33,248 nucleotides of DNA from Chloroflexota bacterium (GCA_043754535.1 JAYUUN010000081.1:1-33248); one strand, 5' to 3'. Counted from the stretch's first letter, positions 17,608 through 33,248 are shown. Notes: generated from the sequence alone by a model not told the origin. Translations and numbers: made by a program.

Positions 17608-18564
17608 ATGACAGTAGAGACACAAGCCAGTGCGATCAAGGTGCTGTTTATGGGTACGCCTGCCTTCGCGGTGCCAAGCCTGCGGGCATTGGTGGCGGCG
17701 GGCTACAAGGTAGTGGCGGTCGTCACCCAGCCGGATCGCCCAGCAGGGCGGGGGGGAGCGTTGGCCCAACCGCCGATCAAGCTAGCCGCCCACGAACTGG
17801 GCCTGCCAGTGCTGCAACCGCCAAAGCTACGCTCGCCAGAGGTCGTCGCCGAACTGCAAACTCTCGGCTACGATCTGGCAGTGGTGGCTGCCTATGGCGA
17901 AATCCTGCGGCCCAACGTGCTGGCAATCCCGCCCCTTGCCAACCTCAATGTCCACGCCTCCCTGCTCCCTCGCCAGCGCGGAGCCGCCCCGATCAACGCG
18001 GCGATCCTTGCTGGCGACCAGCAGGCAGGGGTGACGATCATGCTGATGGATGCAGGGATGGACACTGGCCCAATGCTGGCCCAGCGGGCGATCCCTGTAG
18101 CAGCGGCGGAGACGACTGCCAGCCTGACGGTGAAGCTGGCCGACCTCGGCGCAGAGTTGCTGCTGGCGACCCTACCTGCTTACCTGGGTGGCACCCTCCA
18201 GCCCCAGGCGCAAGACAATGCGCTGGCTACTTACACCAGCCCACTGCAAAAGGATGACGGTAAGGTGGATTGGGCGCAGCCAGCCGCGCAGATCGAACGG
18301 ATGGTGCGCGCCTACGACCCCTGGCCTGCGGCCTTCACCCACTGGCAAGGCAAGCGGCTGAAGCTGGTCAGGGTGGCCGTGGCTGCGCCCGCTAGCGAGG
18401 AGGCAGTAGGCGCAGTCTATCGCCGCACAGATGGGCAGGTGGCAGTACGCTGTGGTACGGGCGACCTGTTGCTGCACGAGGTGCAGCTTGAGGGTAAGGG
18501 ATCGACAGCAATCAAGGCCTTCGTCAACGGCTACCAGGAGTTTGTAGGCAGCAAGCTGGGTTTA
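17608..18564 (+). CDS. fmt: methionyl-tRNA formyltransferase (ends at TTA 18562-18564 if UUA terminates; standard-code stop 18636)
   Basis: FMGTPAFAV, VVTQPDRPAGRG, NVHASLLP..RGAAPI, MDAGMDTG, VQLEGK, family-like end GSKLG. SD AGGAG before ATG 17608. Confidence 0.95.
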
Positions 18565-18583
18565 GCCACCTTTGTGCTGGCAA

Positions 18584-18618
18584 GCAGAAGGGAGATGCGT
18601 TGTGCATCTCCCCTCTGC
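18584..18618. terminator. hairpin between convergent fmt and STAS genes
   Basis: GCAGAAGGGAGATGC / GCATCTCCCCTCTGC, 15-bp stem with one mismatch and a 5-nt loop. Confidence 0.65.
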
Positions 18619-18645
18619 CAACCCACGTCGTCCTGACCGTGCTGG

Positions 18646-18990
18646 CTAGACAGCAGCAGAGAGGGCGGCTTGTTCACTCTCGTAAATGGTAGCGAACTGA
18701 TCCAGGCCAACCATGTGGAATATCTTTTGGTAATGCGAACTGAGGCTGGTTAGCACCACCCGACGGCCATTGGTACGCGCCCGGTTGAGCAGGCTGAGGA
18801 TGATGGCGATGCCTGCACTGTTGATGTAGCTGGCTTCCTCAAAATTGAGTACGATCAGCTTGCCGCTATCGGTGGCCGCAGTGTAAGCCGTCGTCAGGAT
18901 CGCATCCGAGGTGGCCGTTACATCCCCCAGCAGGTCAACTATACTAGCGTTTTCCAGGTGGCGCAGGTTCGTTTGCAATTCGTTACTCAC
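18646..18990 (-). CDS. STAS-domain anti-sigma factor antagonist (RsbV/SpoIIAA-like)
   Basis: 114 aa. IVLNFEEASYINSAGIA phosphoserine motif and IFHMVGL. Confidence 0.9.
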   Translation of the reverse strand: MSNELQTNLRHLENASIVDLLGDVTATSDAILTTAYTAATDSGKLIVLNFEEASYINSAGIAIILSLLNRARTNGRRVVLTSLSSHYQKIFHMVGLDQFATIYESEQAALSAAV

Positions 18991-19041
18991 TTTGTTCTAA
19001 CCCCTTCTCCAATTTCAGCGGTGGCTGGTAGTCACAAGTCG

Positions 19042-19503
19042 CTATTGCAGCCCCATCTTAGCAAGGCTAGCGAGTGCGTGCTTGAGGTAGATCGTCATCC
19101 GTACTAGGCTACCCTCTGGCAGACGAGTCACTTCGACTTCATCCATCAACTGGGTGATCAGGAACATCCCCATGTTGCCATGGGTACCGAGCGGTGGGTT
19201 ATCCACAGTCAGTGGCTCTGTAATGCGCGGGGCAGTCTCGCCACGTCCCTCGTCAAGAACGTTGACATCGAGGCGATCATCTTCGCAGATCATCAGCACG
19301 TTTACTTCGCTGTCTTGAGCAAACTGGTTGCCATGCTCCATCGCGTTGAGGCAGGCTTCGGCCACTGCCGTACGGAGGTCATCCACCCGCGTCGGCTCAA
19401 AACCCATCTGGCGGGCAACAGCACTAGCGGCATCCATAGCCACCTTCTCAAAGCCAAGCACGCTAGGTACGTGCAGTTCGATCCTGTATCTGCTGTGCGT
19501 CAT
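19042..19503 (-). CDS. anti-sigma factor / serine kinase (RsbW-like HATPase)
   Basis: From ATG 19503: LRTAVAEACLNAMEHGN, VLDEGRG, GNMGMFLITQLMDEV. The track's 5' extension overlaps the riboswitch and is spurious. Confidence 0.9.
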   Translation of the reverse strand: MTHSRYRIELHVPSVLGFEKVAMDAASAVARQMGFEPTRVDDLRTAVAEACLNAMEHGNQFAQDSEVNVLMICEDDRLDVNVLDEGRGETAPRITEPLTVDNPPLGTHGNMGMFLITQLMDEVEVTRLPEGSLVRMTIYLKHALASLAKMGLQ

Positions 19504-19578
19504 GAACGCCTCGTTGCCCCCCACTCTGTATATTCCACCCCAAGCTATGGCCCATCCACGGCAGTCCCCGTTGGCTGG

Positions 19579-19608
19579 ATCATAGCACCTTTTACATCTC
19601 GTTGTCAA
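19579..19608 (-). promoter_or_regulatory. promoter of the rsbW/rsbV-like pair
   Basis: Minus strand TTGACA (19608-19603), 18 bp spacer, extended -10 TGcTATGAT (hexamer 19584-19579). Confidence 0.65.
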
Positions 19609-19614
19609 GCCAGG

Positions 19615-19643
19615 TTGACAGCATCGAACAGGTTCGTTATAAT
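19615..19643 (+). promoter_or_regulatory. consensus sigma70 promoter of the riboswitch-ribXY transcript
   Basis: TTGACA (19615-19620), 17 bp spacer, TATAAT (19638-19643). Confidence 0.85.
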
Positions 19644-19658
19644 AATCACAACTGAATA

Positions 19659-19790
19659 GGTTCTCAGGGCAGGGCGCAATCCCCGACCGGCGGTGAGCCA
19701 TTATTGGCAAGCCCGCGAGCTGCATTAGCCATGTGGCATGACCTGGTGCAAAGCCAGGGCCGACAGTTACAGTCTGGATGAAAGAGAACC
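19659..19790 (+). ncRNA. FMN riboswitch (RFN element)
   Basis: P1 GGTTCTC/GAGAACC. AGGGCAGGGCGCAATCCCCGACCGGCGGT, AGCCCGCGAG, CTGGTGCAAAGCCAG, GCCGACAGT, AGTCTGGATGAAAGA match the RFN consensus. Confidence 0.95.
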
Positions 19791-19883
19791 ACACGCGAAC
19801 CATCCCCCGCACGATTGTTGTGTGCTACTGGGCTGGGTCGGCTCCAGCCGGGTGCTGCAATGTGCCTGTTGGCTTCGTGTTCC

Positions 19884-19919
19884 CCCTGCCCTGAAGAATG
19901 TGTGGCGGGGCTTTTTGTT
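19884..19919 (+). terminator. candidate attenuator of the FMN riboswitch
   Basis: CCCTGCC / GGCGGGG stem followed by CTTTTTGTT. Confidence 0.5.
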
Positions 19920-19937
19920 GCCCCAGGAGGTAGGGCG

Positions 19938-20759
19938 ATGATCAGCACAGCAGGGACGGAACGACAGGCGGAATTGGACGGCAACGAAGTGGCGGTGAAG
20001 CGGCGGCGCAAGCGTGCTGCCCGCGGCAAGGGCTGGCTCAACCTGCTCAGTTTTGCCAGCTTCCTTGCCCTCTGGCAGGCAGTGGTTTGGCTAGGCGGCT
20101 ACCCCAGCTTCATCCTACCCGGCCCCTGGGCGGTGCTGATCCGCTTCGGTCAGGCGATCCAGAGTGGGCTGCTGTGGGATAACACGCTGGTTACGCTAGG
20201 CGAGATCGCCCTCGGCTTTGGCCTGGGGGCAAGCGGGGGGCTACTGCTAGCCTACCTGCTCTACAAGTCGCGGTTGCTGGAAACGATCCTCGCCCCCTAC
20301 ATCGCCGCCAGCCAGGCTCTGCCAGTGGTAGCGATAGCCCCACTGCTCGTTCTCTGGTTCGGCTACGGTCTGTTGCCAAAGGTGCTGATCTGCGCGATCA
20401 TCGTCTTCTTCCCAATCACGATCAGCACAGTCGTCGGCTTCAAGAGCATCGAGCGCAGCCTGGTTGAGGTGGCCGACCTGTTCGGGGCGAACGGCTGGCA
20501 GAAGCTGCGGCTGGTCGAGGTGCCACTGGCCGCCCACAATATCTTCGCTGGCCTTCGTCTCGGCCTCACCCTCTCCGTTACCGGGGCAGTGGTGGGCGAG
20601 TTCGTCTCCCCCAGCCGCGGATTGGGCTACCTGCTCAACTTCAGCAGCAGCAGCCTGGATGCGCCGTTGCGTTTCGTCGCGCTGTTTACCCTCGTTGCCC
20701 TCGCTATCCTCGGCTACCGCAGCCTGACCGCCCTTGAACGCCGTTTGGTGGACTGGTAG
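19938..20759 (+). CDS. ribX: riboflavin ABC transporter permease (SsuC/TauC-like)
   Basis: SD AGGAGG, ATG 19938. QALPVVAIAPLL.LWFG and GAVVGEF motifs. Sits directly under an FMN riboswitch, as in Chloroflexi ribXY. Confidence 0.8.
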   Translation: MISTAGTERQAELDGNEVAVKRRRKRAARGKGWLNLLSFASFLALWQAVVWLGGYPSFILPGPWAVLIRFGQAIQSGLLWDNTLVTLGEIALGFGLGASGGLLLAYLLYKSRLLETILAPYIAASQALPVVAIAPLLVLWFGYGLLPKVLICAIIVFFPITISTVVGFKSIERSLVEVADLFGANGWQKLRLVEVPLAAHNIFAGLRLGLTLSVTGAVVGEFVSPSRGLGYLLNFSSSSLDAPLRFVALFTLVALAILGYRSLTALERRLVDW

Positions 20760-20832
20760 CCGATCAGCAACTTTGTACAGACCAACTACAGCATACATCA
20801 CATCACATAAGATTGCATAGGAGATTAGCGCA

Positions 20833-21846
20833 TTGCAGAAGCTCAAAGGATTGTTGTTGCTAATAACGATGGTAGGGTTGGTAGCGGGCTGCGACAGTGG
20901 GGGGACAGCTAACACCCCGGCTGCTGCGTTGAAGAAGGTTAGGATTGGCATGGGCTACATCCCCAATGTGCAGTTTGCTGCCTACTACGTTGCCCAGGAG
21001 AAAGGCTACTACCGACAGGCGGGCCTCGATGTCAGCTTCGATTATGGCAGCACAGACGATCTGCTGGCCCAGGTTGCGGTCGGTAAGCTCGACTTCGCCA
21101 ACTCAGAGGGCGACGAACTGATCGTGGCAGCTAGCAAGGGAGTGAAGGATGTCTACGTCCTTGCCCAGTACCAACGCTTCCCAGTAGCGGTCTTCTTTAT
21201 GGCCGACTCGCCGATCAAGACGGTAGCCGACCTGAAGGGCAAGCGGATCGGCCTGCCTGGTAAGTACGGCGCAAACTACAACGGCCTGCTCGCTATGCTC
21301 TACGCCAACCAGATGACAGAGCAGGATGTGCGGCTGCAAGAGGTTGGTTACACCCAGGCCCAGGCGGTGCAGAGCGGCCAGGTAGACGCTGCGGTGGGCT
21401 ATGCAGTCAACGAGCCGATAGCATTGGCGGCTCAGGGCGTGAAGCTACGTACCTTGCAGGCCAGCGACAGCTACAATCTCGCTAGCATCGGCATTATCAC
21501 CAGCCAGGACAAGGTGGCCCAAGACCCCACAACCGTACAAGCCTTTGTCAGCGCGACCCTGCACGGCATTGCCGACATGAACGCCGACCCCGACGCGGCC
21601 TATGCTATCGCGGCAAAGAAGGAGTACGCTAACATTGACCAGCCGAACAGCGCAGTGCAACTGGCTGTGCTGAAGGAGACGGCGAAGTTTCAGCAGCCGA
21701 GTGGCAACCAGAGGCTGGGGGCGAGCGACCCGGCGGTGTGGGCCGCGACCGCAAAGTTCCTGCAAGCCAGCGGCCTGGTCAGCACGCAGCTAGATGTCAG
21801 CACCCTCTACACCAACCGCTTCGTCGAGGCTAGCCGGGTAAAATTA
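20833..21846 (+). CDS. ribY: riboflavin-binding lipoprotein (NMT1/THI5-like); ends at TTA 21844-21846 if UUA terminates, standard-code stop 21918
   Basis: Lipobox LVAGC, GYIPNVQFAAYYVAQEKGYY..AGLDV, DLKGKRIG.PG, C-terminal YTNRFV. Riboswitch context. Confidence 0.82.
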
Positions 21847-21942
21847 AGGCTGGCACGCGAGATGCTTGTAGAGCAATCAACTGTCCAAAAAGGAGATTAT
21901 CCACCCTGCGTGAGCTAGTCTAGTCGAACTACGGACAAGAAA

Positions 21943-21971
21943 ACGCGCCCCCTGTATACAGAGGGGCGCGT
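21943..21971. terminator. terminator between convergent ribY and lipoprotein genes
   Basis: ACGCGCCCC / GGGGCGCGT stem, with a TTTCTTG tail on the minus strand. Confidence 0.75.
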
Positions 21972-21993
21972 CCTTGTCGCTGGCGAAGGCCAC

Positions 21994-24099
21994 TTACGGA
22001 GCGGTGATGTCACCGACCTGGTTGACCTTGGTGATGGTGTAGATGACATTGCTCTCGGTAGCACCGGTCTTGCTGTAAGCCTTGACCTGGCGGGTGGTCT
22101 TGTCGCTCTTGGCAACCCAGACCTCGTACTTGCCTTCAGTACCGTTGGCGGCACCGTCGTAGGCGTAGTGGTCGCAGTCCTCGCCACCGATGGCCTCGCT
22201 ACCTTTGTTCTGGTAGCCGTTGAAGCCCTTGAGGCTGGAGAAGGTGTTGCTGAGGATACTGTCGTAGGCACCTACGATAGCCTGGCCGCCAGTGGTCTTG
22301 GTGTAGCTCTTACCGTCCATGCTGACGTAGGCATCCTCACCGATAACCACGTAGTTGATCTTGGTGCCAGAACTCTCGATCACCATGTTGGCCTTGTCGG
22401 GGCGGATGAAGTCACCTTCTACTTTGGAGGTGGTGGTGGTACCACTGGTCGTGCTTTCCGAGGTAAGGGCAAGGTGGTAGCTCTTGACGTTGGAGAGGTC
22501 AGCCACGTCGAGGGTACCTGCGCTGGTGCCGCCAGTGCCGCTAGTGCCACCAGTGCCACTCACGGAGGTGGCCGCAGCGGTTGCGCCCATCTCCATGTCG
22601 GGGGTGGCTTCGCTGGTCATGCCCATCGCTGGGGTAGCATCGCCCGTCATGGGGGTCATTGCGCTAGCAGGGTCGGTGACATTGCTCGGCTCTGCAATGG
22701 TCAGCGGCTCGTTGATCTTGCTCCACTTGAGCGTAGCCATGATCTTCTGACCGCTACTGGTACCATCGATCTTCATCTGGCGGATGGTGGGTGTGCCGTC
22801 GTTCGAAATCCAGATGTCGTAGCTGCCAGTCATGCTGCTGCTGCCGCCACTGGTTCCCAGGCTGCTCAGTGCCGCTGCGTCGGCTACGATGTGCTTGGTG
22901 TCAACGCCGTCGATCTTCTCAGTGGCGGGGCTGCCGTCCTTGAGCGCAGAGGCTGCCTTGTCAATGTCTGATGGCTTGAAGTTATCCCACATCTTGGTAA
23001 AGCTGTCCAGGCCGCTGGCGGAACCGCTAGCACTCTTGATGTAGGTCTTGCCACCATCCGCACTCATGTAGCTACCTTTGTCGGTCACTACCACGTCAGC
23101 ACTCCGACCAGCCGCGTTCATCTGCATGGACATCTTGTTGTTGGCAACGTCTATGTCGCCCGTCATGGTTATGCTCTGCCCCGCACTGTTAATGTCAGCC
23201 TCCAGACGGTAGCTCTTGAGCGCCTTCATGTTGGCTGCTGCGCTCTTGAACATCTCGGCATTGCCGCTGCTACTACCGCCGCCGTTGCCGTTGCTAGAAG
23301 CGGCAGTGGGGGTGCCGTCGCTCATCATCGTGCCAGCGGTTGGGGTGCTGTCGCCCATCATCGTGCCAGCGGTCGGGGTGCTGTCGCCCAGGCTGCCGCC
23401 GGTGCTGAGGTTGGTCGGCACCTTGATGTCGAAGGTCTGGTTGATCTTGCTCCACTTGACGGTGGCAACAACATCCTTGCCGTCGCTCTTGCCAGTGATT
23501 TTCATCTGGCGCACCAGCGGGGTTGCGTCGGTGGATATCCAGAGGTCTGCCGTGCCTTCAGTAGAGGACATACTGGTACTGCTGCTGGTCGTAGCAGAAA
23601 GGCCGCTGAGGTCCTTCAGATTGACGGTCATGTGCTTGGTGTCAACGCCGTCGATCTTCTCGGTGGCGGGCGCGCCGTCCTTCAGCGAGTCCTTCGCTTT
23701 GTCCACATCTTCAGGCTTGAAGCTGTCCCACATCTTGGTGAAACTGTCCAGGCCAGTGCTGGTGGTGCTATCCTTGGTGAAGGTCTTGCCGCCATCCATG
23801 CTGGTGTAGCTAGCTCCATCAACAGAGACGGAGTTGATGTTCATGCCCATTGCACCCATGGTCGCTGAGACCTTCTTGTTGGCAACGTCTACGTCGCCGC
23901 CCATCGTAATGTTTGTGCCAGCCTGGCTGGCAGTCACATCGAGGCGGTAACTCTTGAGGGCCTTCATGTTCGGCCCGGCCTTCTTGAGCAGGTCGGCATT
24001 GCTAAGGCTGCCACTGCCACTGTCGCCACAGGCGGCCAGGATCAGGCTCATGATCGCTACCATCGCTAGCACACTGATGCGCTGCTTGAAACTACCCAT
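21994..24099 (-). CDS. lipoprotein with three LppX/LprAFG (LolA-like fold) domains and Thr/Pro/Met-rich linkers
   Basis: Lipobox LAAC, SD GGAGG. Three repeats of MKxLKSY...E.IDG.DT.H...W.......RQ.K...K.N....I..P. Confidence 0.75.
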   Translation of the reverse strand: MGSFKQRISVLAMVAIMSLILAACGDSGSGSLSNADLLKKAGPNMKALKSYRLDVTASQAGTNITMGGDVDVANKKVSATMGAMGMNINSVSVDGASYTSMDGGKTFTKDSTTSTGLDSFTKMWDSFKPEDVDKAKDSLKDGAPATEKIDGVDTKHMTVNLKDLSGLSATTSSSTSMSSTEGTADLWISTDATPLVRQMKITGKSDGKDVVATVKWSKINQTFDIKVPTNLSTGGSLGDSTPTAGTMMGDSTPTAGTMMSDGTPTAASSNGNGGGSSSGNAEMFKSAAANMKALKSYRLEADINSAGQSITMTGDIDVANNKMSMQMNAAGRSADVVVTDKGSYMSADGGKTYIKSASGSASGLDSFTKMWDNFKPSDIDKAASALKDGSPATEKIDGVDTKHIVADAAALSSLGTSGGSSSMTGSYDIWISNDGTPTIRQMKIDGTSSGQKIMATLKWSKINEPLTIAEPSNVTDPASAMTPMTGDATPAMGMTSEATPDMEMGATAAATSVSGTGGTSGTGGTSAGTLDVADLSNVKSYHLALTSESTTSGTTTTSKVEGDFIRPDKANMVIESSGTKINYVVIGEDAYVSMDGKSYTKTTGGQAIVGAYDSILSNTFSSLKGFNGYQNKGSEAIGGEDCDHYAYDGAANGTEGKYEVWVAKSDKTTRQVKAYSKTGATESNVIYTITKVNQVGDITAP
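23323..23388. repeat. 33-bp tandem duplication (GDSTPTAGTMM x2)
   Basis: CATCATCGTGCCAGCGGT(T/C)GGGGTGCTGTCGCC at 23323-23355 and 23356-23388. Confidence 0.9.
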
Positions 24100-24373
24100 T
24101 ACTAACTATCCTCCCTTGTTGTAACCCCCACCCGATCAGGTGAGGGTAATTCAGAAGCCAGGCGCGCCCTGCGCCCAGCTACTCGAAGAACTTGCTGCAA
24201 AGGCAACACGGTCTTGCCTACCACTCATGCGCCTACTGCTGGTGGAACGTTGCAGTTGCATGGGTGGGCAGCATACTGTTGCCCTGACCCTGCTATTATA
24301 TACCATTAGAGGCTTGCCTTGCTGTTAAATCTTGTACATTCAACTATGCATCCTTTAGCACACGCTGGTTGGC

Positions 24374-25963
24374 TTAGTTGCCCCAGCCAGTGATGCCCTG
24401 GAAGACGTAGCCGATCACCGCTGCACAGCAGAAGCCGAGCAGCGGCCAGGTGTGCAGCTTGTAGCGTGGGTGCAGCAGCAATCCCAGCCAGAGGAAGCTC
24501 CAACTGATATACCAGGGCTGGTAGTAGAGACTGGTGAGGAAGGTGAAGAAAAGCAGAACACCATAGCAGGCTCGGAAAAGGCGGCGGGTTTGCTCCTCGG
24601 CCTCGAACTCTGCGTCAGCCTGCGCGCTCTGCCAGGCGACTAGCAGTTGGCGACCGGGGCGGTAGCGAGCCAATAGCCACTCCAACCGCTCGGCCAGCCA
24701 ACGTAGCGGCACACTCTCGGCCAGGATGTGCGGGCTGCCTTGCCAGATCACCCACAACTGGCGCAGGTAGAACAGGGCAAACCCCCCCCAGCCGAGCGAC
24801 TTAACCAGGCTGGTGGCGGTGGATCGGGCCAGGCCAGCCCCTTCCAGGCTATAGATCAGGGCAGTAGGGATGGGCGCGCCCAACTTGTCACCCAGGCGCA
24901 GGAAAGCGAGGCTGGCGGTTCCCTCCCACAAGGGGGCGTAGCAGAGGGCGGCGAAGGCGAAGCAAGCCCCCCCACTGAGCAGCGTGAAGCGGAGGTTGGC
25001 AAGCCCAATTTGCTGACCGCTGGGCGGCAACGACCGTCGCTTCTCCTGCTCTGCCTGCGCACGCCAGATGTAGACTAGAAAGAGGGGGATGATGAAGATC
25101 GGCACCACCTTGATCAGGCTGGCGGCGGTCAGGGCTAGCAAGCTGAGGCCGTAGCGACCACCAACCAGCAGCCAGACTGCCAGCATGACGAAAAAGAGCA
25201 TGACAATGTCGTTGTGACCACTGCCAATAAACTCGAACAGCACCAGTGGATTCCAGGCGAAGATCAGGGTGCCTGCCAACTGGTAGCGCGGTTGCACCTT
25301 ACCCAGGGTGAGGTAGAGCAGCCAGACGGTGCCGAGGTAGGCAAGGTAGGTCAACCCCTTGAACAGAAAGAGATTAGCCAGCAGGTTGCTACCAGCCAGC
25401 AGACTGAGGGGCGCAGTGAGCATCATCCAGAGTGGGCCGTAGGTACTGGGCATCTTAGTCCAGGCGATGTATTTGTAGAGCTGGTCGTGGCTAAACTGTT
25501 CTGGCGTGTGGGTAAAGGGGTTGGCCCCATACGTCGTCCACTCCCGCGTCTGGAACAGGTAGTCGAAGATATCTTGCGAAAAGAGGGGGTAGCTCCAAAA
25601 GAGGACGGTGGCGAAAGCCAGGGCAAGGCCGAGGGTCAGCCACTTCGCCAGCGGGTCGGCAGCAGACTCGGCTGACCAGGCTCGGCGCAAGGCTGCCCCC
25701 GCCGCCGCAAAGTAGAACAGGTGCAGCACGGCGATCACCGCCACATACGCCCCCTTATCTAGGAAGACGATGTTGTGGCCTACCATGCTGAACAGGGGGG
25801 TTGTTAGTTGGCCGCCAGGGATCAGGGTCGTGTAGTAGGCAGAGAGCGGGTAGTTGGCGGTGAAAAAGAGGAAGATCAGGGCCATCACCGTACCAGAGAG
25901 TGCTAGCAGGGTCGTACCTACCTGGGTGCGTACCTGTCCACGTGCTTCAACCCGCATTGCCAT
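24374..25963 (-). CDS. GT-C polyprenol-phosphate-sugar glycosyltransferase (MptA/MptB, GT87-like)
   Basis: PLFSQDIFDY, GANPF..TP, TYGPLW, AWNPLVLFE..GSGHND, IKVVP, YQPWY motifs. Polytopic membrane protein. Confidence 0.8.
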   Translation of the reverse strand: MAMRVEARGQVRTQVGTTLLALSGTVMALIFLFFTANYPLSAYYTTLIPGGQLTTPLFSMVGHNIVFLDKGAYVAVIAVLHLFYFAAAGAALRRAWSAESAADPLAKWLTLGLALAFATVLFWSYPLFSQDIFDYLFQTREWTTYGANPFTHTPEQFSHDQLYKYIAWTKMPSTYGPLWMMLTAPLSLLAGSNLLANLFLFKGLTYLAYLGTVWLLYLTLGKVQPRYQLAGTLIFAWNPLVLFEFIGSGHNDIVMLFFVMLAVWLLVGGRYGLSLLALTAASLIKVVPIFIIPLFLVYIWRAQAEQEKRRSLPPSGQQIGLANLRFTLLSGGACFAFAALCYAPLWEGTASLAFLRLGDKLGAPIPTALIYSLEGAGLARSTATSLVKSLGWGGFALFYLRQLWVIWQGSPHILAESVPLRWLAERLEWLLARYRPGRQLLVAWQSAQADAEFEAEEQTRRLFRACYGVLLFFTFLTSLYYQPWYISWSFLWLGLLLHPRYKLHTWPLLGFCCAAVIGYVFQGITGWGN

Positions 25964-26146
25964 GAACGCTGCTCCTACTACTTTTGTGCAAAAGCCACTA
26001 CCCTGATTTGTGACACAAGACCTTGCTATTATAACTGCAAAACGAGCAGTGAGGCAATCTTATCTCTCATCCTTTAGTTGGAGAGTAGCGCAACCTTCGC
26101 TAACGCTGCTATAAGCAGGAGGCGGGCCATAATGCGGCAGACACAA

Positions 26147-26176
26147 GAAGCCCCCTCCGCAAGCAGAGGGGGCTTC
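26147..26176 (-). terminator. terminator downstream of the lipoprotein gene
   Basis: GAAGCCCCCTC / GAGGGGGCTTC 11-bp perfect stem. Confidence 0.75.
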
Positions 26177-26198
26177 CTTGCTACATGCGAGCATAGAG

Positions 26199-27962
26199 CT
26201 ACTGGGCGGTCTCCGCTTCGGTCGCGTCAATCGTTCCGTCGCTGCCGTGATCCACCTCAACCATCAGTGGCTTGCCCGCGTCCCATGCGCCGAAGTTGAG
26301 GTACTCGGTGTCGCCACCGTTGATCTTAACATCCTTGTGCATGATGGTGTGCGAACCAGTCGCGTCGATCTCGGTCAGTTCGATGTCGTACTTGTCAGGA
26401 CTGCCTGAAGAGTCCTTGACCGCCAACTTGCCGGTTGCCTCATCGATGCTGAAGTCAAGTTCCTCACCTCTGCCAGCATCCAGGTTGTTGATCTTGATCA
26501 GGTAGTCGTGACCCTCCTGGTCAATCGCCAGCGTGATGTTGGGCGACTGGTTCTCGCCTGGTGCATAGGCAATCTTGTGGCCGTCAGCAGAGACAGTCAA
26601 GTTGTCCCGCTGCCCAGCAGTCAACTTCATGTTCTTGATGTTGGCAACTACGCCCTGACCGAAGATGGACAGCTCCTCCGCGTTGATATCCGTACCGTCC
26701 GGCCCATCCACCACCACGGTGTAGTCCACACCCTGGGGCAGGTTGTAGTACGGCTCCTGGTCGGAGACCAAAGCCCCACCGTGCAAGATCACCTCGTGTG
26801 CGCCGGGGATAGTGTTGACCAGCTTGCCGTTCTCAATACCGAGCTTGTTGCCCGCCTTGTCGGTGATCATCAGGTGGCCGGGGCCGTTGAGGATCATCTG
26901 GCGGGGCTGGCCCGCGCTGCCGTCGGTAGCATTGCACCAGGGGCAGACCAGGGGCCCCTGCCGCACCCGCAAGCTGGTAAGGTCCATTGGATAGCTACCA
27001 ACACCACCAGACCAGGGGGCAGCATCCTCCGTGGGGTTGAGGGCCGCAGATGCATACTTCCAGGTGTTGGCGGTGCGGTCAACCTCCACGTACTTGTCCA
27101 CGCCAGGGTAGTTGTTGTCGTAGACGTGGATAAGGTAGAGGCCGTTGCCCTTGTCCTCAATGGAGTAGGGAGTGACGGCGTGGCCGCCGCCCTTGAAGTA
27201 GAAGCCGAGGGTGTATTGGTCAGCAGCCCCAGGCTTGAACGAGGCGATCAGCATATCGAGGATTTCGCTGGGCGACTTGCGGCGGGTGGCAGCCGACTCG
27301 CTGGCGACCGGCTCTACTCCCTGGTAGGCCCAGCCAACCGAAATCAGGCTGCGGAGCTTGTCGTTCCCTTCCAGCTTGAGGTCGAAGGGGCTGTCCGCGC
27401 CATAGTCGGCGGCCTTAGCCTTACCCTCGTACATCAGCAAGGTAGCGACGGCAAAACCTTCGCAACTACCGCCGTTGATACCCTTGTTCTGCTGATCGAG
27501 CCATTGCAGGGCTGCCGTGCCAGGCACGCAAGTGGCACCGCTACCGGTCGCGCACACGGCCTTGTCACCAAACATCTGGCGGGTATCGGTGATGGTCAGA
27601 CCAGCAGGAGTTTCTGGGTACTTGCCGCCGTAGTTGGGGAAGCTGAAGCCATTGGGCTGAGAGCGGAAGCCGATGTCAGCAGTCGTCCCACCAGGCACAG
27701 CCGCCGCCACCGTGTCGGTTGGGACAGCAGCCGCCCCTGCTACTGTGTTGGTGGGGGCAGCAACCATCACATCGGTTGGGCCAGCATCATTCTTGGCGAT
27801 GCTGGTGCCGGTTGGGGCAACGGCAGCCGAGGCTAGCGTCGCGGTTGAGGCCGCAGCAGGCGCAGTAGCCGGGGGGGAGTCGCCGCCGCAGCCAGCCAGC
27901 GATAGGCTGATAGTCAGCAGTAGAACCAAAGCCATGAGCTTCTGGTGGTGAGGTTTGTACAT
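26199..27962 (-). CDS. lipoprotein with putative papain-like Cys-His-Asp domain
   Basis: Start ATG 27962 (track extends to 28205). Lipobox LAGC, Ala/Thr/Pro linker, GFSFPNY, GGSCEGF, GGHAV, VYDNNYP. Confidence 0.7.
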   Translation of the reverse strand: MYKPHHQKLMALVLLLTISLSLAGCGGDSPPATAPAAASTATLASAAVAPTGTSIAKNDAGPTDVMVAAPTNTVAGAAAVPTDTVAAAVPGGTTADIGFRSQPNGFSFPNYGGKYPETPAGLTITDTRQMFGDKAVCATGSGATCVPGTAALQWLDQQNKGINGGSCEGFAVATLLMYEGKAKAADYGADSPFDLKLEGNDKLRSLISVGWAYQGVEPVASESAATRRKSPSEILDMLIASFKPGAADQYTLGFYFKGGGHAVTPYSIEDKGNGLYLIHVYDNNYPGVDKYVEVDRTANTWKYASAALNPTEDAAPWSGGVGSYPMDLTSLRVRQGPLVCPWCNATDGSAGQPRQMILNGPGHLMITDKAGNKLGIENGKLVNTIPGAHEVILHGGALVSDQEPYYNLPQGVDYTVVVDGPDGTDINAEELSIFGQGVVANIKNMKLTAGQRDNLTVSADGHKIAYAPGENQSPNITLAIDQEGHDYLIKINNLDAGRGEELDFSIDEATGKLAVKDSSGSPDKYDIELTEIDATGSHTIMHKDVKINGGDTEYLNFGAWDAGKPLMVEVDHGSDGTIDATEAETAQ

Positions 27963-28223
27963 TCTTCCTTGTTCCTTCCTTCTTGTAACGGTGGATGTAG
28001 CTGTGCCGAGGCGCGATCCAGCACACAACTGCCTACCAGCCGGAGCAGACCTGCCCAGGCTGGCTGAACAACTTCTCAGCAGGTGTAAGTATACTACTTT
28101 GTAGCAGGCTTGCATAGCACCTAACGCCAGTAGTTTGGCACGAGTTTGGCGACCGCCCGCTAGCCAGCAACGGCCCACGGTTGCCAGGATGCGGGCAACC
28201 TCCAACCTTCACCAGCAGCACTG

Positions 28224-28232
28224 TGTTATAAT
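28224..28232 (+). promoter_or_regulatory. extended -10 promoter of the two-peptide operon
   Basis: TGtTATAAT about 50 nt upstream of ATG 28283. Confidence 0.6.
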
Positions 28233-28282
28233 AGCAGCAGTGGATTGGCGACCGGTATTTGGTGAGCAAAAGGAGGTTCAAG

Positions 28283-28390
28283 ATGAAGGACTCGGATGTG
28301 AACGGCATGATCATGGGACTTGGGGCTGCCATACTCATGTTCATCGCCCTGGCGTTGGTGAACCGCATTATGGGGCGCAAGGTTAACTGA
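28283..28390 (+). CDS. 35-aa single-TM small protein
   Basis: Strong SD AAGGAGG. MKDSDVNGMIMGLGAAILMFIALALVNRIMGRKVN*. Confidence 0.7.
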   Translation: MKDSDVNGMIMGLGAAILMFIALALVNRIMGRKVN

Positions 28391-28491
28391 TGAACGAGCA
28401 ACAGCAGAGCAGGGCAACTACCCTCTTTTACGCCGTGTTCTTCGCCTTCTTTCTGGCCCTGGTCAGGAAGTTCTTCAGCCGCAGCAAGTAG
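28390..28491 (+). CDS. 33-aa single-TM small protein
   Basis: TGATG stop/start overlap. MNEQQQSRATTLFYAVFFAFFLALVRKFFSRSK*. Confidence 0.65.
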   Translation: MNEQQQSRATTLFYAVFFAFFLALVRKFFSRSK

Positions 28492-28496
28492 TCCCA

Positions 28497-28529
28497 GGGG
28501 CGCACCTGCTACGCTGCGCCCCCTCTTTC
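28497..28529 (+). terminator. terminator after the small ORFs
   Basis: GGGGCGCA / TGCGCCCC stem followed by CTCTTTC. Confidence 0.6.
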
Positions 28530-28546
28530 GGCGGCGGCTCTCGGCT

Positions 28547-29053
28547 CTACCAGGCTGCTTGCAGACAACTGGCCGCCCACTCGATGGTGGCAGCCATCTT
28601 GCCCAGCAATGCCGTGCGGCTGCTACCCGTGCTGCTCACATCAATGCAGGAGAGAGGGCCGCGCAGGGTCTGCGTGCGCCCGTCGCGGCTGGTCAGTTGC
28701 AGGGTAACAATGCTGGCCGCCGCTAGTAGCGCGTCCTCGTCCGGCTGCACTGTCCCCCACAACACCAGGTCGGCCCCTACCTCGGCTGCCAGCAGGCGGG
28801 CGGCTGCTTCCTCGTTCAAGGCTGGCCCCAGGGCGATCAGCGGGTTGATCTGCTCAACCCCCCCCTTGCGTAGCTGGGCAGCCACCATCCCCGGCACCAG
28901 GTCACGCAGTTCGTAGCAGCCTCCGCCCTGCTCTGGCGCAATACATTGCAGCGCGCAGATGTAGAGGCGCACAGCGGCAGGGCGAAGGCTGGCAGCTATG
29001 TTGAGCGGGGGCTGGTTGTTGCTGATCTGGGCAAACGAGGGGTTAATTTCCAT
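28547..29053 (-). CDS. hypothetical protein
   Basis: ATG 29053 after GGAG. Has its own promoter. A..L...GADLVLWGTV resembles TolB-N/CsgG-like alpha/beta domains (weak). Confidence 0.65.
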   Translation of the reverse strand: MEINPSFAQISNNQPPLNIAASLRPAAVRLYICALQCIAPEQGGGCYELRDLVPGMVAAQLRKGGVEQINPLIALGPALNEEAAARLLAAEVGADLVLWGTVQPDEDALLAAASIVTLQLTSRDGRTQTLRGPLSCIDVSSTGSSRTALLGKMAATIEWAASCLQAAW

Positions 29054-29111
29054 GTTAGTCTCCAATATTGAGCGAGGTCAGGTGTAGCTTGCGTTTACGC
29101 AAGTTCATCCA

Positions 29112-29153
29112 ATTATAGCCTCTCCCCTGCCATTTGGCAAGTCCTACTTGCCA
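29112..29153 (-). promoter_or_regulatory. promoter with overlapping palindrome
   Basis: Minus strand TTGCCA (29140-29135), 17 bp spacer, TATAAT (29117-29112). TGGCAAGT-cct-ACTTGCCA at 29135-29153. Confidence 0.65.
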
Positions 29154-29171
29154 TACCGCAAGTGCCGAAAC

Positions 29172-29208
29172 CAAAAGTACCCCCTCTAGTATCAGAGCAG
29201 GTACTTTC
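29172..29208 (-). terminator. candidate terminator after tyrS
   Basis: AAAGTACC...CTCT / AGAG...GGTACTTT interrupted stem with T-rich tails. Confidence 0.55.
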
Positions 29209-29236
29209 TGGCTATCTAGCTCCCGTGCAAGGGGGA

Positions 29237-31273
29237 TTAGCTGCACTCGATCTTGACGAAGCGACGCTTGCCCGCCCGTACGATCAGCCCAGCTACCGGC
29301 TTGACGCTGGCATTGGGGTCACTCACCTTCTGCTCATCCAGGCTGACCCCACCTTGCTCGACCAGGCGGCGAGCCTCCTTGCGGCTGGGCGCGAGGCCAC
29401 ACTTGAGCAGCAGGTCAAGAATGTTGGTCGATTCGCAGGCTAGCTGGGCCGTGGGGATTTCATCGGGCAACCCCTTGTCTTGGAACACGGTGGCGAAGTG
29501 TTGCGCCCCGGCCTCGGCCCCCACATCGCCATGATAGAGGCGCACAATCTCGGAGGCTAGCCGCTTCTTCGCCAGCATTGGGTTCTGGCCTGCCGCGAGA
29601 TCGACCCTGATCTGCTCGATCTCAGCTAGTGGCACCTCAGTGGTAGCAACAAAGTAGTCCACGATCTGCTCGTCACTCAGGCTCATCACCTTGCCGTACA
29701 TATCAGCTGGCGCGTCGATGATGTTGATCGTGTTGCCCCAACTGCTGCTCATCTTACGCCCATCCAGACCCATGATCATCATATTAGTGATGATCTGCTG
29801 CGGGTTTTGGCCGTAAGCCTTCTGGATCACCCGCCCCGCTGTCAGGTTGAACAACTGGTCGGTGCCACCCAACTCTATGTCGGCGCGCACTGCTACGCTG
29901 TCGTAACCTTGCATCAGCGGGTAGAGGAACTCTTGCAGGCCAATCGGCTTGTCATCCTCCCACCGCTGCTTGAAGTTCTCGCGCTGGATCATCTGTGCGA
30001 CGGTGAACTGGCTAGCAAGGCCGATCAGGGCTGCGAAGTTCATCTGGCCTAGCCACTCGCTATTGAAGCGGAACTCCACCTCACCCTGATCGAGGATGCT
30101 CCTGATCTGGTCAATATAGGTCGCCATGTTCTGGCCCACCTGGGCTGCCGTCAGCATTGGGCGGGTAGCATCCTTGTCGCTGGCATCACCAAGCTGGCCG
30201 GTCACATCGCCGATGATAATCACTGCCTGGTGGCCCAGCTTCTGAAACTGGCGCAGCTTGCGGATCGCTACCGCCCGCCCGATGTGTATTTTGCTGCTGG
30301 TTGGGTCAATGCCGAGCTTGACCCGCAGTTGCCGCCCGCTCCGCAGCAGCTTTGCCAAATCCTCACGCACAATCACATCCACCACTCCCCGCGTCAGGAT
30401 ATCCTGGATCGCCACCTCATCAGTGCTGATCTTTGGGGGGGCCAGCATCTTCTCGGCCTCTGGCGGGGCGGTTGGTAGCGGTTGGCTAGCCTGGTCGCCG
30501 ATGATCTCGCTCATGTCGCTGATCAGCGGGTCTGCGAGGTCGAGGTCGTCGTCCGGCCAGGAGCAGCGGGGGTGTTGGCGGTCAAGGTGGAAGGTGCGCA
30601 CCTGCCCACCCAGTTGCTCATGCACCAGCTTCGCCAGCTCGTCAGTGGCGGCGCGCACCTGCTCCTCGTTGACCCCTAGCCAGCCGTCAATAGGGAGAAA
30701 GACGGCCACGCTGTCCTCACGTATCTTCGCTCCATTGCCCTGCCGCCAAACCCAGCGGCGGGTTCGCACCTGGTTGCTGTCGTCCACGTAGACAAACTCA
30801 CCAGCGGGCAGTTGCTCCGGCTCGCCCGGCTCGTCGTCACCGCCAAGAGGCTGAAAGAGGTCGCCCTCACGAGCGGGGCGCAGGGTGATGTCGCCGACGG
30901 TGCGATCCAGGTCGTGTGCGCCAATCGGCAGCAGGTACTTGAGAGCGACGCTGTTTGCCAGGTCTACCAGCGGGTTGATGTGGGGCAGCTTGCCTTTAAT
31001 CGCCCGGCCAGCTAGGGCCTCGATGCTGACGGGGTACTTGTTGGCGTTGATACCGAGGGCGGTGAACGCCTGCCGCCAGGCTGCAATGCCGGGGCTAGCT
31101 TGCAGGGCAGAGAGGCTGGCATACTGCGCCCGCAGATCGGTAATCGCCTGATCTAGGAGGAAGTCTATCGCCTCGTCATCGGCATAGTCCTGCCCCACCC
31201 CATGAGCGACCACCACGCCGAGGTAGAGGTTGGGGAACCGTTCAAGTACCGCCTGATCAATCGTGAAGTGCAT
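29237..31273 (-). CDS. tyrS: tyrosine--tRNA ligase with N-terminal B3/4 (PheRS-beta editing-like) domain
   Basis: ATG 31273 after GAGGT. B3/4: AWRQAF...YPVSIEAL...INPLVDLAN...GEFVYVD...RRWVWRQ. TyrRS: KLGIDPT..IHIGR, YPLMQGYD, GGTDQ, KMSSS, C-terminal S4 domain. Confidence 0.92.
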   Translation of the reverse strand: MHFTIDQAVLERFPNLYLGVVVAHGVGQDYADDEAIDFLLDQAITDLRAQYASLSALQASPGIAAWRQAFTALGINANKYPVSIEALAGRAIKGKLPHINPLVDLANSVALKYLLPIGAHDLDRTVGDITLRPAREGDLFQPLGGDDEPGEPEQLPAGEFVYVDDSNQVRTRRWVWRQGNGAKIREDSVAVFLPIDGWLGVNEEQVRAATDELAKLVHEQLGGQVRTFHLDRQHPRCSWPDDDLDLADPLISDMSEIIGDQASQPLPTAPPEAEKMLAPPKISTDEVAIQDILTRGVVDVIVREDLAKLLRSGRQLRVKLGIDPTSSKIHIGRAVAIRKLRQFQKLGHQAVIIIGDVTGQLGDASDKDATRPMLTAAQVGQNMATYIDQIRSILDQGEVEFRFNSEWLGQMNFAALIGLASQFTVAQMIQRENFKQRWEDDKPIGLQEFLYPLMQGYDSVAVRADIELGGTDQLFNLTAGRVIQKAYGQNPQQIITNMMIMGLDGRKMSSSWGNTINIIDAPADMYGKVMSLSDEQIVDYFVATTEVPLAEIEQIRVDLAAGQNPMLAKKRLASEIVRLYHGDVGAEAGAQHFATVFQDKGLPDEIPTAQLACESTNILDLLLKCGLAPSRKEARRLVEQGGVSLDEQKVSDPNASVKPVAGLIVRAGKRRFVKIECS

Positions 31274-31300
31274 TCTGCTAACCTCATCCCTTTTGGCTGC

Positions 31301-32683
31301 TAACCGCTTGCCGCTCAGTCGATTGAGTACTCGCATGACGCGGCCACTCTGCACAGCGGTCAGGTGCGCCTGCATGACAGCCAGTTGTTGGCGCAGGTTG
31401 GCGATCTCGTCCTCCAGGTTCTGCACCCGCGCCGCCCCGCTCATGGGCGAGGCCGCTTGCCCGTAATCGGGCAGGTGGGCGGCCAGCAACTCAGCGTCAC
31501 TCAGGCGGGCCTGCTCTGCACCAAAGCGTTTGAGGCGGGCAATGGCTTCGTGTTCGCGGTAGGCCAGTTCGCTACCAACCACAGGCTGGGCGGCGGTCTG
31601 CTGCCGCTTGCGCTCGGTCAGCATCTCTAGCAGGGGAAGGAACTGCTGTGACCGCGCTTCGGGCGTGTAGCGCACAAACACGTCGTCGAAGGCCGCTCTG
31701 CCGATACGCACCCGCTCCGCAGGGTCGAGCAGCCGATAGATCGCCGCCGCCCACTCGTCGTCGCCGCTGGCTAGCAGGCCGTTCTCGCCGTCGCGGATCG
31801 CTTCCCGAAAGGCGGGAGTGGGGCTGGCGATAGTGGGTACGCCGACCACCCCGGCCTCAAAATACTTCAGCTCGCTCTTTGCCATCGCGAACGGGTTGTC
31901 CAGTTCGAGGGGGGCGAGGTTGATGTCAGCCTGGGCCTGGATGCTGGGCAGTTGCCGCCAGGGAACGAAGCCGAACCGCTGCACCCGTGCTGTCCCTTCG
32001 TACTGGAACAGTGGCTCTGGCAGGCTCAGGTAGCCGCCAACCAGTAGCCTCACCTCTGGCCGCTCGCTCATCACCCGTGCCAGGGCAGGGACGACCAGAG
32101 CAAAGTCGCGGCTGTGGCTAGGCGAGCCGCTCAGGTAGCAGATGGTGATCGTAGCTGGGTCGCTGGTTGCCGCAGGCTGGGTGGCGAAAGCTGGTTGCTG
32201 CTGGGTAGCATAGATGATCTGGTCGTCGTAGAGGGCGTTGCGATTGACAAAAGCAGGCTTGCCGGTCTGCTCCGTCACCTGCGCGGCCAGGTAGGGGGTG
32301 CTGGTCAGGGCGAAGTCGCACTGGTCGAGGGTGGCGCGGTTGGCCGCGAACTGGCGCAGGTGCAGGGCGGTGTCCGCAGGCGGCATCTGGTAGAGCAGGT
32401 CGATCCGCTGGGCCAACTCTGGCAGGAATACAAGGTCATCGGTATCGTAGAGCGCAAGTTGGCCGCGATCCTGGATCACCGCCAGCATGGCGGCCACGGT
32501 CGGGGTGTAGCTGGCCCGGCAGAAGATGAAGGTGTCGTAGTCGCCCAGGTCGGCCAGCAGCAGCGGGTCGTCGGCGGAGCGCACAGCAGCGGCCACCCCT
32601 GCGAACCAGAGTTGCTCGGCCTGGTGCCAGGCGCGGTAACGCTCGGTGTCGCCGCTCCAACCAGCAATGAACAGTACCTTCAC
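31301..32683 (-). CDS. GT-B (GT4-like) glycosyltransferase with C-terminal coiled coil; in the standard code it reads through into tyrS
   Basis: GTG 32683 after GGAG. RYRAWHQAEQL, YDTDDLVF, GSPSH..D, DINLAPLE..NPF..AKSELKYFEAG..GVPTIAS. Tail VQSGRVMRVL is typical of polysaccharide-cluster proteins, then TTA at 31303-31301. Confidence 0.85.
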
Positions 32684-32687
32684 TGGC

Positions 32688-33248
32688 TCAGACTCCGATC
32701 CCGTTGTGCGGGCGATTGGCCGTCGCCTCGTCCTGCGCCAGGCTGCGGTCAAACTGGGACTGCGCCTCGGCACTAGCCTGCGCCCCGGCCAATTCCTCAC
32801 CGCTCAAGAGCAGGTCGCTGCTACTCTCAGCGTACTCTGCACTGGCTAGCTCGTGGCTGGTGGTACCATTCGTAGCCACGCCGTTGCTAGCTGGTTGGAG
32901 CAGGTCGTGCTTGCCGTTGCCGTTCAAGGCTGGCGAGGCAGCAGGCGGCCCAATGAAGTCGGCAGCCACGCCACTCGGTTCGGTGAACTCGCCGATCAGG
33001 AAGTCAAACTCGCGCTTGGTGTGCGTCTGTGGGGCTTCCTCGGTGCAATGCTGCCACGCGGCATCTACCTGGATCAGGCCATAACGTTCACCGCCCAGTT
33101 CTGGCTGCACGTCGAAGGTGTACCAGTGGTCGTGGTAGTCGAGGCAGTTGATCAGTTCGTTGTCATAGATCGAAACGGCAACATCAAAGTGGCCCTCCAG
33201 CAGCGGCAGCTTGGCGATCTTATAATCCACGTAGCCCTTACCGTGGAT
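32688..33248 (-). CDS. C-terminal part of polysaccharide ABC exporter ATPase (Wzt C-terminal domain), partial
   Basis: G.GYVDY.I..LPLLEG.FDV.VSIYD......DYHD..Y.F.V......YG resembles Wzt_C. Next to a glycosyltransferase. Confidence 0.7.
   Translation of the reverse strand: MHGKGYVDYKIAKLPLLEGHFDVAVSIYDNELINCLDYHDHWYTFDVQPELGGERYGLIQVDAAWQHCTEEAPQTHTKREFDFLIGEFTEPSGVAADFIGPPAASPALNGNGKHDLLQPASNGVATNGTTSHELASAEYAESSSDLLLSGEELAGAQASAEAQSQFDRSLAQDEATANRPHNGIGV

Follow-up and report, generated by a model that had tools for sequence, protein, structure and literature searches.

TTA codons at gene ends in the window

The window analysed here, a 33,248-base stretch of DNA from a Chloroflexota bacterium, is the complete contig C81 of the assembly that we call G000 (3.87 Mb, 132 contigs, 61.4% GC, 88.9% completeness, 0.7% contamination). 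An earlier note on this DNA claimed that TTA, a standard leucine codon, behaves in it like a stop codon, and it named three genes with an in-frame TTA at the expected C-terminus (at 18562 and 21844 on the plus strand and at 31303 on the minus strand). We located all three where they had been placed. The genes concerned and the features that adjoin them are as follows:

17608..18564, plus strand: fmt (methionyl-tRNA formyltransferase), with its ATG at 17608 behind GAGGAG and the TTA at 18562-18564 read as its stop
18565..18636, plus strand: the tail of fmt, read as non-coding, 24 codons from the TTA to the TGA at 18634-18636
20833..21846, plus strand: NMT1/THI5-type substrate-binding protein ('ribY'), with an uncertain TTG start at 20833 and the TTA at 21844-21846
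31301..32800, minus strand: group-1 glycosyltransferase, with an uncertain GTG start at 32800, ending at the TTA at 31303-31301
29237..31273, minus strand: fusion of a B3_4 domain and tyrosyl-tRNA synthetase (TyrRS), with its ATG at 31273, 27 nucleotides past the TTA, behind a AGGGATGAGG stretch

Relatives were sampled for comparison: 390 kb of DNA from G001, which shares a genus with G000, and 400 kb, 175 kb and 100 kb from G002, G003 and G004, respectively, which belong to another (sister) genus of the same family.

Where do the homologues of these proteins end? The Pfam domains of Fmt (Formyl_trans_N and Formyl_trans_C) stop 10 residues short of the TTA. With the read-through form of Fmt as the query, 38 of 40 relatives matched, and the matches ended at residues 317–329, mostly at 317–321; the TTA is residue 319. 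Longer matches from outside the genus (reaching residue 338 at most) contain stops. The tail is conserved, and aligns throughout, in the same-genus genome alone. In the NMT1-type protein, the Pfam NMT1 domain covers residues 45–256, and the next standard stop (TAG) lies 24 codons beyond the TTA. The 37 matches to this protein in 34 genomes outside the genus end mostly at residue 332–338, with the TTA at 338. Four matches are longer (342–351); three of them hold a stop, and the other is the weaker of two matches in G002. For both proteins, homologue ends coincide with the TTA, and the two 24-codon tails described in the earlier note lie beyond it.

The minus-strand TTA at 31303-31301 is codon 500 within an open frame of 1189 codons. 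Glyco_trans_1_4 occupies residues 231–388 of this fused frame, the TTA falls at about residue 499, and the TTA and its surrounding context are identical in the same-genus genome. The apparent fusion of glycosyltransferase and TyrRS had been regarded as an artefact of reading TTA as leucine. This holds for the glycosyltransferase, a separate gene that the TTA splits off; the part downstream is a genuine B3_4-TyrRS fusion gene. The two parts share a single open frame in every one of the five family genomes, as they do in four genomes from one sister family, and are separate genes in another family. The B3_4 domain is kin of the PheRS editing domain.

The window’s own 22 stop-to-stop open reading frames (ORFs), 10,394 codons in all with their 5′ leaders, contain only four further in-frame TTAs; the two strands together hold 254 TTA trinucleotides. 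One of the four, at 24105, is codon 0 of its ORF, ahead of the start. The others are:

28124-28122 and 28088-28086, minus strand: leader TTAs, codons 28 and 40 of their ORF, upstream of the likely ATG at 27962
11776..12552, plus strand: DDE transposase-like ORF; its in-frame TTA, at 12157-12159, is residue 128 of the ORF and lies inside a DDE_Tnp_1 match (35–209)

The likely ATG at 27962, which opens the gene at 26199-27962, comes after a GGAAGGAA stretch. The transposase-like ORF is short, has a low coding score (16.7) and is present in a single copy in the assembly. It is apparently a relic; alternatively, it may be a recent arrival from a host that uses the standard code. The earlier claim, made for 24 credible genes, was that no TTA is in frame inside a protein; it stands, with the TTA at 12157 as the one real exception in the window. 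At the rate found in G024, a genome from a sister family (2.4 per 1000 codons), about 24 internal TTAs would be expected in the window; the near-absence is therefore far beyond chance.

TTA across the genome and the family

To place TTA genome-wide, we assembled a gene set for G000 from stop-to-stop ORFs no shorter than 100 codons, which were scored by codon usage and thinned of overlaps. The resulting 2,908 ORFs (1.18 M codons) cover 91% of the assembly. Such ORFs include 5′ leaders, and the codons of the first decile thus partly precede the true starts. In-frame TTA occurs 745 times (0.63 per 1000 codons), compared with 11.4 per 1000 for CTA and 14.9 per 1000 for TTG, both of which had been described as freely used. 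Its distribution over ORF deciles is bimodal (395, 70, 19, 5, 16, 8, 4, 5, 31 and 192); CTA, TTG and ATA are spread evenly. Leader sequence ahead of true starts accounts for the first-decile peak. The last-decile peak is peculiar to TTA: its ratio of last-decile to middle frequency is 25, that of the next-highest sense codon, AGA, is 2.7, and that of TCA is 1.35. We considered a second reassigned codon and rejected it, as the last-decile excesses of AGA, AGG and GGA are small (ratios of 1.4–2.7); we attribute them to the Shine-Dalgarno sequences of downstream genes and to basic C-termini.

In the centres of ORFs that reach 300 codons or more, TTA was found in frame 28 times in 475,144 codons, versus 4,445 times in 946,728 off-frame triplets. 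Selection has purged TTA from gene interiors. It lies within the last 60 codons of 200 ORFs, about 10 being predicted from the interior rate. With these counted as stops, the usage is TAG 1091, TGA 862, TAA 676 and TTA 200: TTA ends about 7% of G000 genes (about one in fourteen), and the three standard stops still terminate genes, as the earlier note had stated.

The coding signal is lost at the TTA. The GC contents of the three codon positions in the 30 codons ahead of a 3′ TTA (.67/.47/.75) resemble those at the end of other ORFs (last 18 codons,.66/.46/.74), and the values from the TTA to the standard stop (.61/.60/.59) resemble those beyond ordinary stops (.58/.60/.58). Codon periodicity is gone after the TTA in each class of following base (TTAG, TTAA, TTAT and TTAC). 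TTATG overlaps, in which the next gene’s ATG shares bases with the TTA, occur in 24 of the 200 cases; the corresponding counts are 83/860 for TGATG and 28/676 for TAATG. Downstream of TTAT, the GC peak shifts to the frame that the overlapping ATG opens for the next gene.

A smaller class of TTAs lies in mid-ORF. There are 74 TTAs more than 60 codons from both ORF ends, and 31 ORFs are coding-like upstream of such a TTA. Twenty of these 31 are coding-like downstream as well and were compared with Pfam; the other 11 were left out. In none of the 20 does the TTA fall within a Pfam match, nor does it in any of seven such cases from the sister genus. Eleven of the 20 TTA sites lie between unrelated domain sets, two flank a complete domain, and seven are uninformative. 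The 11 junctions are:

response regulator-GGDEF and glycosyltransferase
SDR, TldD-like and PmbA-like proteins, separated by two TTAs in one 1222-codon frame (locus L192, C107:21292-24957, plus strand)
thiamine-binding protein and biotin carboxylase
APH kinase and RNase PH
TPR and amine oxidase
thiolase and hexapeptide transferase
Mrr nuclease and lipoate ligase
FemAB and methyltransferase
deformylase and Exo_endo_phos nuclease
HD and ScpA
AsnC and LysE

The two TTAs that flank a complete domain belong to isocitrate dehydrogenase and to the start of a GH35 enzyme:

C1:32852-37642, minus strand (locus L190): TTA 17 residues ahead of the GH35 domain, followed by GGAGG and by an ATG seven codons on

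With TTA taken as a stop, the frame at this last locus can be read as two ordinary genes. At the junctions generally, TTA separates neighbouring genes that happen to share a frame.

The same behaviour was found in the relatives. Bimodal TTA is common to all five family genomes in two genera (G000 and the samples of G001–G004). In the pooled sister genus, 50 of 474 ORFs end at TTA, and periodicity is lost afterwards. Among 32 orthologue comparisons within the family, some of which involve paralogues, the codon aligned to a terminal TTA is TTA in 13, a standard stop in nine, a leucine codon in one and another codon in nine. The pattern is absent from the sampled sister families, represented by G006 (69% GC), G009 (58% GC; TTA at 3.0 per 1000, flat), G024 (60.2% GC; TTA at 2.40 per 1000, flat, with periodicity kept past 3′ TTAs) and G013 (a small sample). 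Four genomes flagged as unpublished (G007, G012, G015 and G034) entered only the outgroup tallies and motif lists and carry no central claim. GC pressure alone was rejected as an explanation: G024, of equal GC, uses TTA as an evenly spread sense codon. The trait is family-wide, goes back to one evolutionary event and does not stem from GC content. At the level of sequence, UUA marks the coding end across this family of uncultured Chloroflexia.

Contigs from four sequencing runs in four studies span 17608-22000. They differ by 8–11 substitutions, contain no indels and leave both plus-strand TTAs unchanged, which answers the concern that an extra T might have been introduced in error at these sites. 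Given four independent assemblies and a trait that occurs in five genomes, assembly or indel error is ruled out. The organism is present in these runs, from glacier, freshwater and sediment, at a depth of 9–26.

tRNA-Leu(UAA) and the release factors

We turned to the molecules that would decode UUA. ARAGORN found 46 tRNAs in G000, among them leucine tRNAs with the anticodons CAA, CAG, GAG and UAG. These four served to build a covariance model, which was run on ten genomes. No tRNA-Leu(UAA) was found in G000 (by ARAGORN or the covariance model) or in G001 (by the covariance model), assemblies that are 87–89% complete. One each was present in G002, G003 and G004, and normal ones were found in G006, G008, G009 and G024; for G005, there was none among the matches listed by the covariance-model search. 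The sister-genus tRNAs have a C31.A39 mismatch closing the anticodon loop and hence a 4-bp anticodon stem, where the outgroups have a Watson-Crick pair. In G002 and G004, the tRNA is flanked by the same gene; near the orthologue of that gene in G000, the slot is contiguous and no tRNA was found in it. This empty syntenic slot lends partial support to a true loss of the tRNA, the neighbours of which vary among the sister-genus genomes. Because the sister genus has both the TTA pattern and a tRNA-Leu(UAA) gene, simple loss of the tRNA is argued against as the cause. One may speculate that the sister-genus tRNA persists to read UUG, or as a relic.

G000 also has a gene for transfer-messenger RNA (tmRNA). 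Two other ARAGORN calls deserve mention. A 93-nucleotide ‘tRNA-Pyl(CUA)’ at C31:4032-4124 is not tRNA-like by eye and probably represents a false positive; the tRNA-SeC(UCA) call at C84:51665-51759 looks genuine.

Only the release factors RF1 and RF2 carry RF-1 and PCRF domains in G000; no third gene with an RF-1 domain (ArfB-like) and no extra release-factor paralogue was found in this 89%-complete assembly. The RF1 loop is canonical, with PxT, the Gln of VQRVP and GRIHTS all kept. RF2 is altered. In all five family genomes, SPF has become SPY and RRHTSF has become RRQTSF; over the whole loop, HRLVR-SPF-DSA-HRRHTSF is changed to HRMVR-SPY-DSQ-HRRQTSF by four family-specific substitutions. Thirteen RF2 positions are fixed in the family with residues found in fewer than 5% of sequences elsewhere, and four of them are no more than 14 residues from the recognition loop. 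Among 113 other sequences, M192 is Leu in all 113, Y198 is Phe in 109 and Q205 is His in 108; Q201 replaces Ala or Ser. Alignment to solved RF2 chains confirms these loop positions. We take it from RF2-ribosome structures that the loop His (Q205 here) stacks on the second base of the stop codon and that the SPF serine reads that base.

Among the best RF2 hits, the combination of both motifs is confined to this family. The best 120 hits in the large protein collection comprise 99 with SPF and RRH, seven with SPY and RRQ, four with SPY and RRH, four with SPF and RRQ, and six in which the motif was unmatched. The seven with SPY and RRQ are the seven top hits (68–100% identical), and all are of this family’s type. 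We rejected SPY alone as the cause, since G024 and G013 carry SPY together with the His and use TTA as a sense codon. RF2s with SPF and RRQ occur in several unrelated GC-rich lineages, at 12 metagenome loci (L266, L269, L270, L275, L282, L286, L292, L311, L312, L320, L322 and L323) of 3–21 kb and 63–72% GC; these hold 0–3 TTAs each, too few to judge whether TTA is avoided. In the RF2 gene of the same-genus genome (L240:450-560), the classical site for programmed +1 frameshifting, CTT TGA C, is still present, and autoregulation of RF2 via UGA is probably intact.

UUA as a probable fourth stop codon

How might these observations be explained? In the earlier note, UUA was held to end translation, either as a fourth stop or as an unassigned codon. 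That disjunction is supported by the decile distribution, the loss of periodicity, the ends of homologues, the gene junctions, the spread through the family, the agreement of four independent assemblies on the two plus-strand sites and the fact that tRNA-Leu(UAA) was not found in the genus. We consider it very likely that UUA ends translation. We further regard it as probable that UUA is a genuine terminator, no longer a leucine codon, that stands beside UAA, UAG and UGA and has RF2 as its putative reader. As the agent that reads UUA, RF2 is favoured with some reserve. Five considerations point to it: the substitutions in its loop, the unchanged RF1, the involvement of UUA and not UUG, the organellar precedents discussed below, and a preference for G at the following (+4) position like that of TGA and TAA. 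At that position, G makes up 54% after TTA, 40% after TGA and 37% after TAA; TAG is instead followed by C in 47%. RF2 normally reads U-A/G-A. If its reading of the second position had widened to U, it would capture UUA and not UUG, which fits with TTG remaining an ordinary codon.

The alternative in which UUA is unassigned holds that neither a tRNA nor a release factor reads it; the ribosome would stall, and drop-off or a rescue such as that by tmRNA would follow. The failure to find tRNA-Leu(UAA) in G000 and G001 and the presence of a tmRNA gene accord with this idea, and release by a factor and rescue would look alike in sequence. We nonetheless think it unlikely. The sister genus exhibits the same pattern despite its tRNA-Leu(UAA) gene, TTATG overlaps occur at the rate of real stops, and the search of the 89%-complete assembly yielded no ArfB-like third gene with an RF-1 domain. 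Moreover, tmRNA rescue marks its products for degradation, and such a fate ill fits 7% of genes, including fmt, def, isocitrate dehydrogenase and thiolase.

Could a factor other than RF2 be responsible, be it RF1 or an unrecognised protein or RNA, the changes in the RF2 loop being incidental? Between PxT and GRIHTS, two variable positions of RF1 are unlike those of the outgroups, the RF2 substitutions are each found singly elsewhere, and the substitution of the SPF serine that is the organellar hallmark is missing. Yet RF1 keeps its PxT, the Gln of VQRVP and GRIHTS; it reads UAR, and a widened second position would be expected to take UUG too, whereas TTG is ordinary. With only two class-I release-factor genes found, we hold this explanation to be quite improbable.

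The earlier note also raised the possibility that the ribosome, at a hungry UUA, slips by +1 onto an overlapping TAG or TAA; the human mitochondrial AGA/AGG ‘stops’, for which a −1 frameshift model exists, offer a parallel. All three sites in the window are indeed TTAG or TTAA, and so are 125 of the 200 terminal TTAs in the genome, compared with 43% of all TTAN. The observation does not extend to the remaining 75, which are TTAT or TTAC (the base after the 200 TTAs is G in 108, T in 49, C in 26 and A in 17). At these 75 sites, median distances to the next stop are 18.5 codons for the +1 frame and 14 codons for the −1 frame (controls, 17–18), and periodicity is lost there as well. G is, in addition, the most frequent +4 base after TGA and TAA in G000. 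A shift to either frame was accordingly rejected as the general mechanism, and slippage is a very improbable account of the whole. Finally, it is hardly credible that TTA is merely a very rare leucine codon in a genome of 61% GC, with the tails translated or produced by assembly errors: the tRNA-Leu(UAA) gene of the sister genus would suit this notion, but G024, at equal GC, uses TTA evenly at 2.4 per 1000, about 10 ORFs with a TTA in their last 60 codons would be expected and 200 were seen, the tails have no periodicity, 11 implausible domain fusions would be created, and the four independent assemblies agree without indels on a trait shared by five genomes.

Several points weigh against UUA as a stop that is read by RF2. 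The gene set is home-made (stop-to-stop ORFs with codon-usage scoring), and the assemblies are 83–89% complete. The DDE_Tnp_1 match at 12157 is the window’s one real exception. In G003 (L085:8472-10409, minus strand), of the sister genus, a TTA lies in the linker of Nnr between YjeF_N and Carb_kinase, a protein that is normally bifunctional; this would mean a split gene or read-through of the TTA. A standard stop occurs no more than three codons beyond 18% of terminal TTAs, versus 11% after standard stops, an excess that suggests some read-through or leakiness. The tRNA-Leu(UAA) of the sister genus folds well and has a compensatory stem change between genomes, and UUA may still be read as leucine to some degree in that genus. 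As to RF2, SPY or RRQ alone occurs in other lineages, G024 and G013 combine SPY alone with TTA as a sense codon, and the link is a correlation drawn from a single event. The SPF serine, substituted in the organellar RF2s that are associated with UUA stops, is retained here.

If UUA is a stop read by RF2, the order of events can be sketched. The change in RF2 and the purge of TTA would have come first, in the common ancestor of the two genera; we place them there because both genera share them. The tRNA-Leu(UAA) would then have been weakened, as in the C31.A39 mismatch of the sister genus, and later lost in the genus of G000.

Comparable codes are known from organelles. UUA is a stop codon in Thraustochytrium mitochondria (NCBI table 23). 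The account given in PMC12574857 attributes the UUA stop of labyrinthulean mitochondria to a changed mtRF2a, the ‘invariant Ser204’ of RF2 being replaced by Ala, Gly or Cys; judged by the numbering of one solved chain, this residue is probably the SPF serine. The likeness to our case is close, in that leucine has given way to stop at UUA, UUG stays leucine and an altered loop of RF2 type is suspected. However, the labyrinthulean change concerns an organelle with a handful of genes, whereas the present one concerns a free-living bacterium with a genome of about 4 Mb and some 200 such stops. Furthermore, the serine is replaced there but kept here, where the changes are Phe to Tyr, His to Gln, Leu to Met and Ala/Ser to Gln. 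In peDinoflagellate plastids, both UUA and UCA are described as stops and are linked to a substitution of RF2 ‘Ser204’ (PMC12574857, 2025). These plastids share with our family a UUA restricted to the ends of coding sequences, a normal RF1 and a modified RF2. The plastid, however, also converts UCA, and its RF2 has deletions besides the Ser substitution; TCA is ordinary here (ratio 1.35). For the mitochondria of Marsupiomonadales and Pseudoscourfieldia, PMC12574857 attributes UUA/UUG stops to changes in mtRF1a. This, too, is a leucine-to-stop change with an altered release-factor loop, but it involves both UUR codons and implicates RF1, whereas our case involves UUA only and a canonical RF1.

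Human mitochondrial AGA/AGG are explained either by the −1 frameshift model or by a dedicated mtRF1 paralogue (the latter cited in PMC12574857). They resemble the present UUA as sense codons that stand at the ends of reading frames; they lack a cognate tRNA, and none was found for UUA in the genus of G000. Human mitochondria, however, have two such sites, whereas here 75 of 200 are not explained by frameshifting and no extra release-factor paralogue was found. In Streptomyces, the TTA codons that depend on bldA lie inside coding regions and are read as leucine by a regulated tRNA. That system shares with ours a TTA that is very rare in a GC-rich genome. It differs in that our TTA is missing from the inside of coding regions and stands at gene ends.

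The bacterial code changes described so far, to our knowledge, turn a stop or sense codon into an amino-acid codon. Like the earlier note, which knew of no bacterial UUA stop, we found none in the literature that we searched. Sense-to-stop changes had been recorded in mitochondria alone and, since 2025, in one plastid lineage (PMC12574857). Codetta is described as unable to detect such changes (PMC9825746), and the results presented in PMC13462651 for Codetta and gTranslate over GTDB genomes report only UGA-to-Trp. With the standard screening tool blind to sense-to-stop changes, similar cases may hide in public genomes.

We lean, with caution, towards the full proposal that a family of free-living Chloroflexia has a four-stop code by way of a remodelled RF2, that this is the first sense-to-stop reassignment in a cellular, non-organellar genome, and that two of its stages can be seen. 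If it is true, the mechanism would amount to a natural RF2 variant, possibly with a widened reading of the second base. For the family itself, annotation with table 11 would append a junk tail to, or wrongly fuse, some 7–10% of the proteins. The two related genera may reveal the succession of steps by which a codon is reassigned: in the sister genus, with its weakened tRNA, the codon may be ambiguous, and in the genus of G000, in which no such tRNA was found, the change may be complete.

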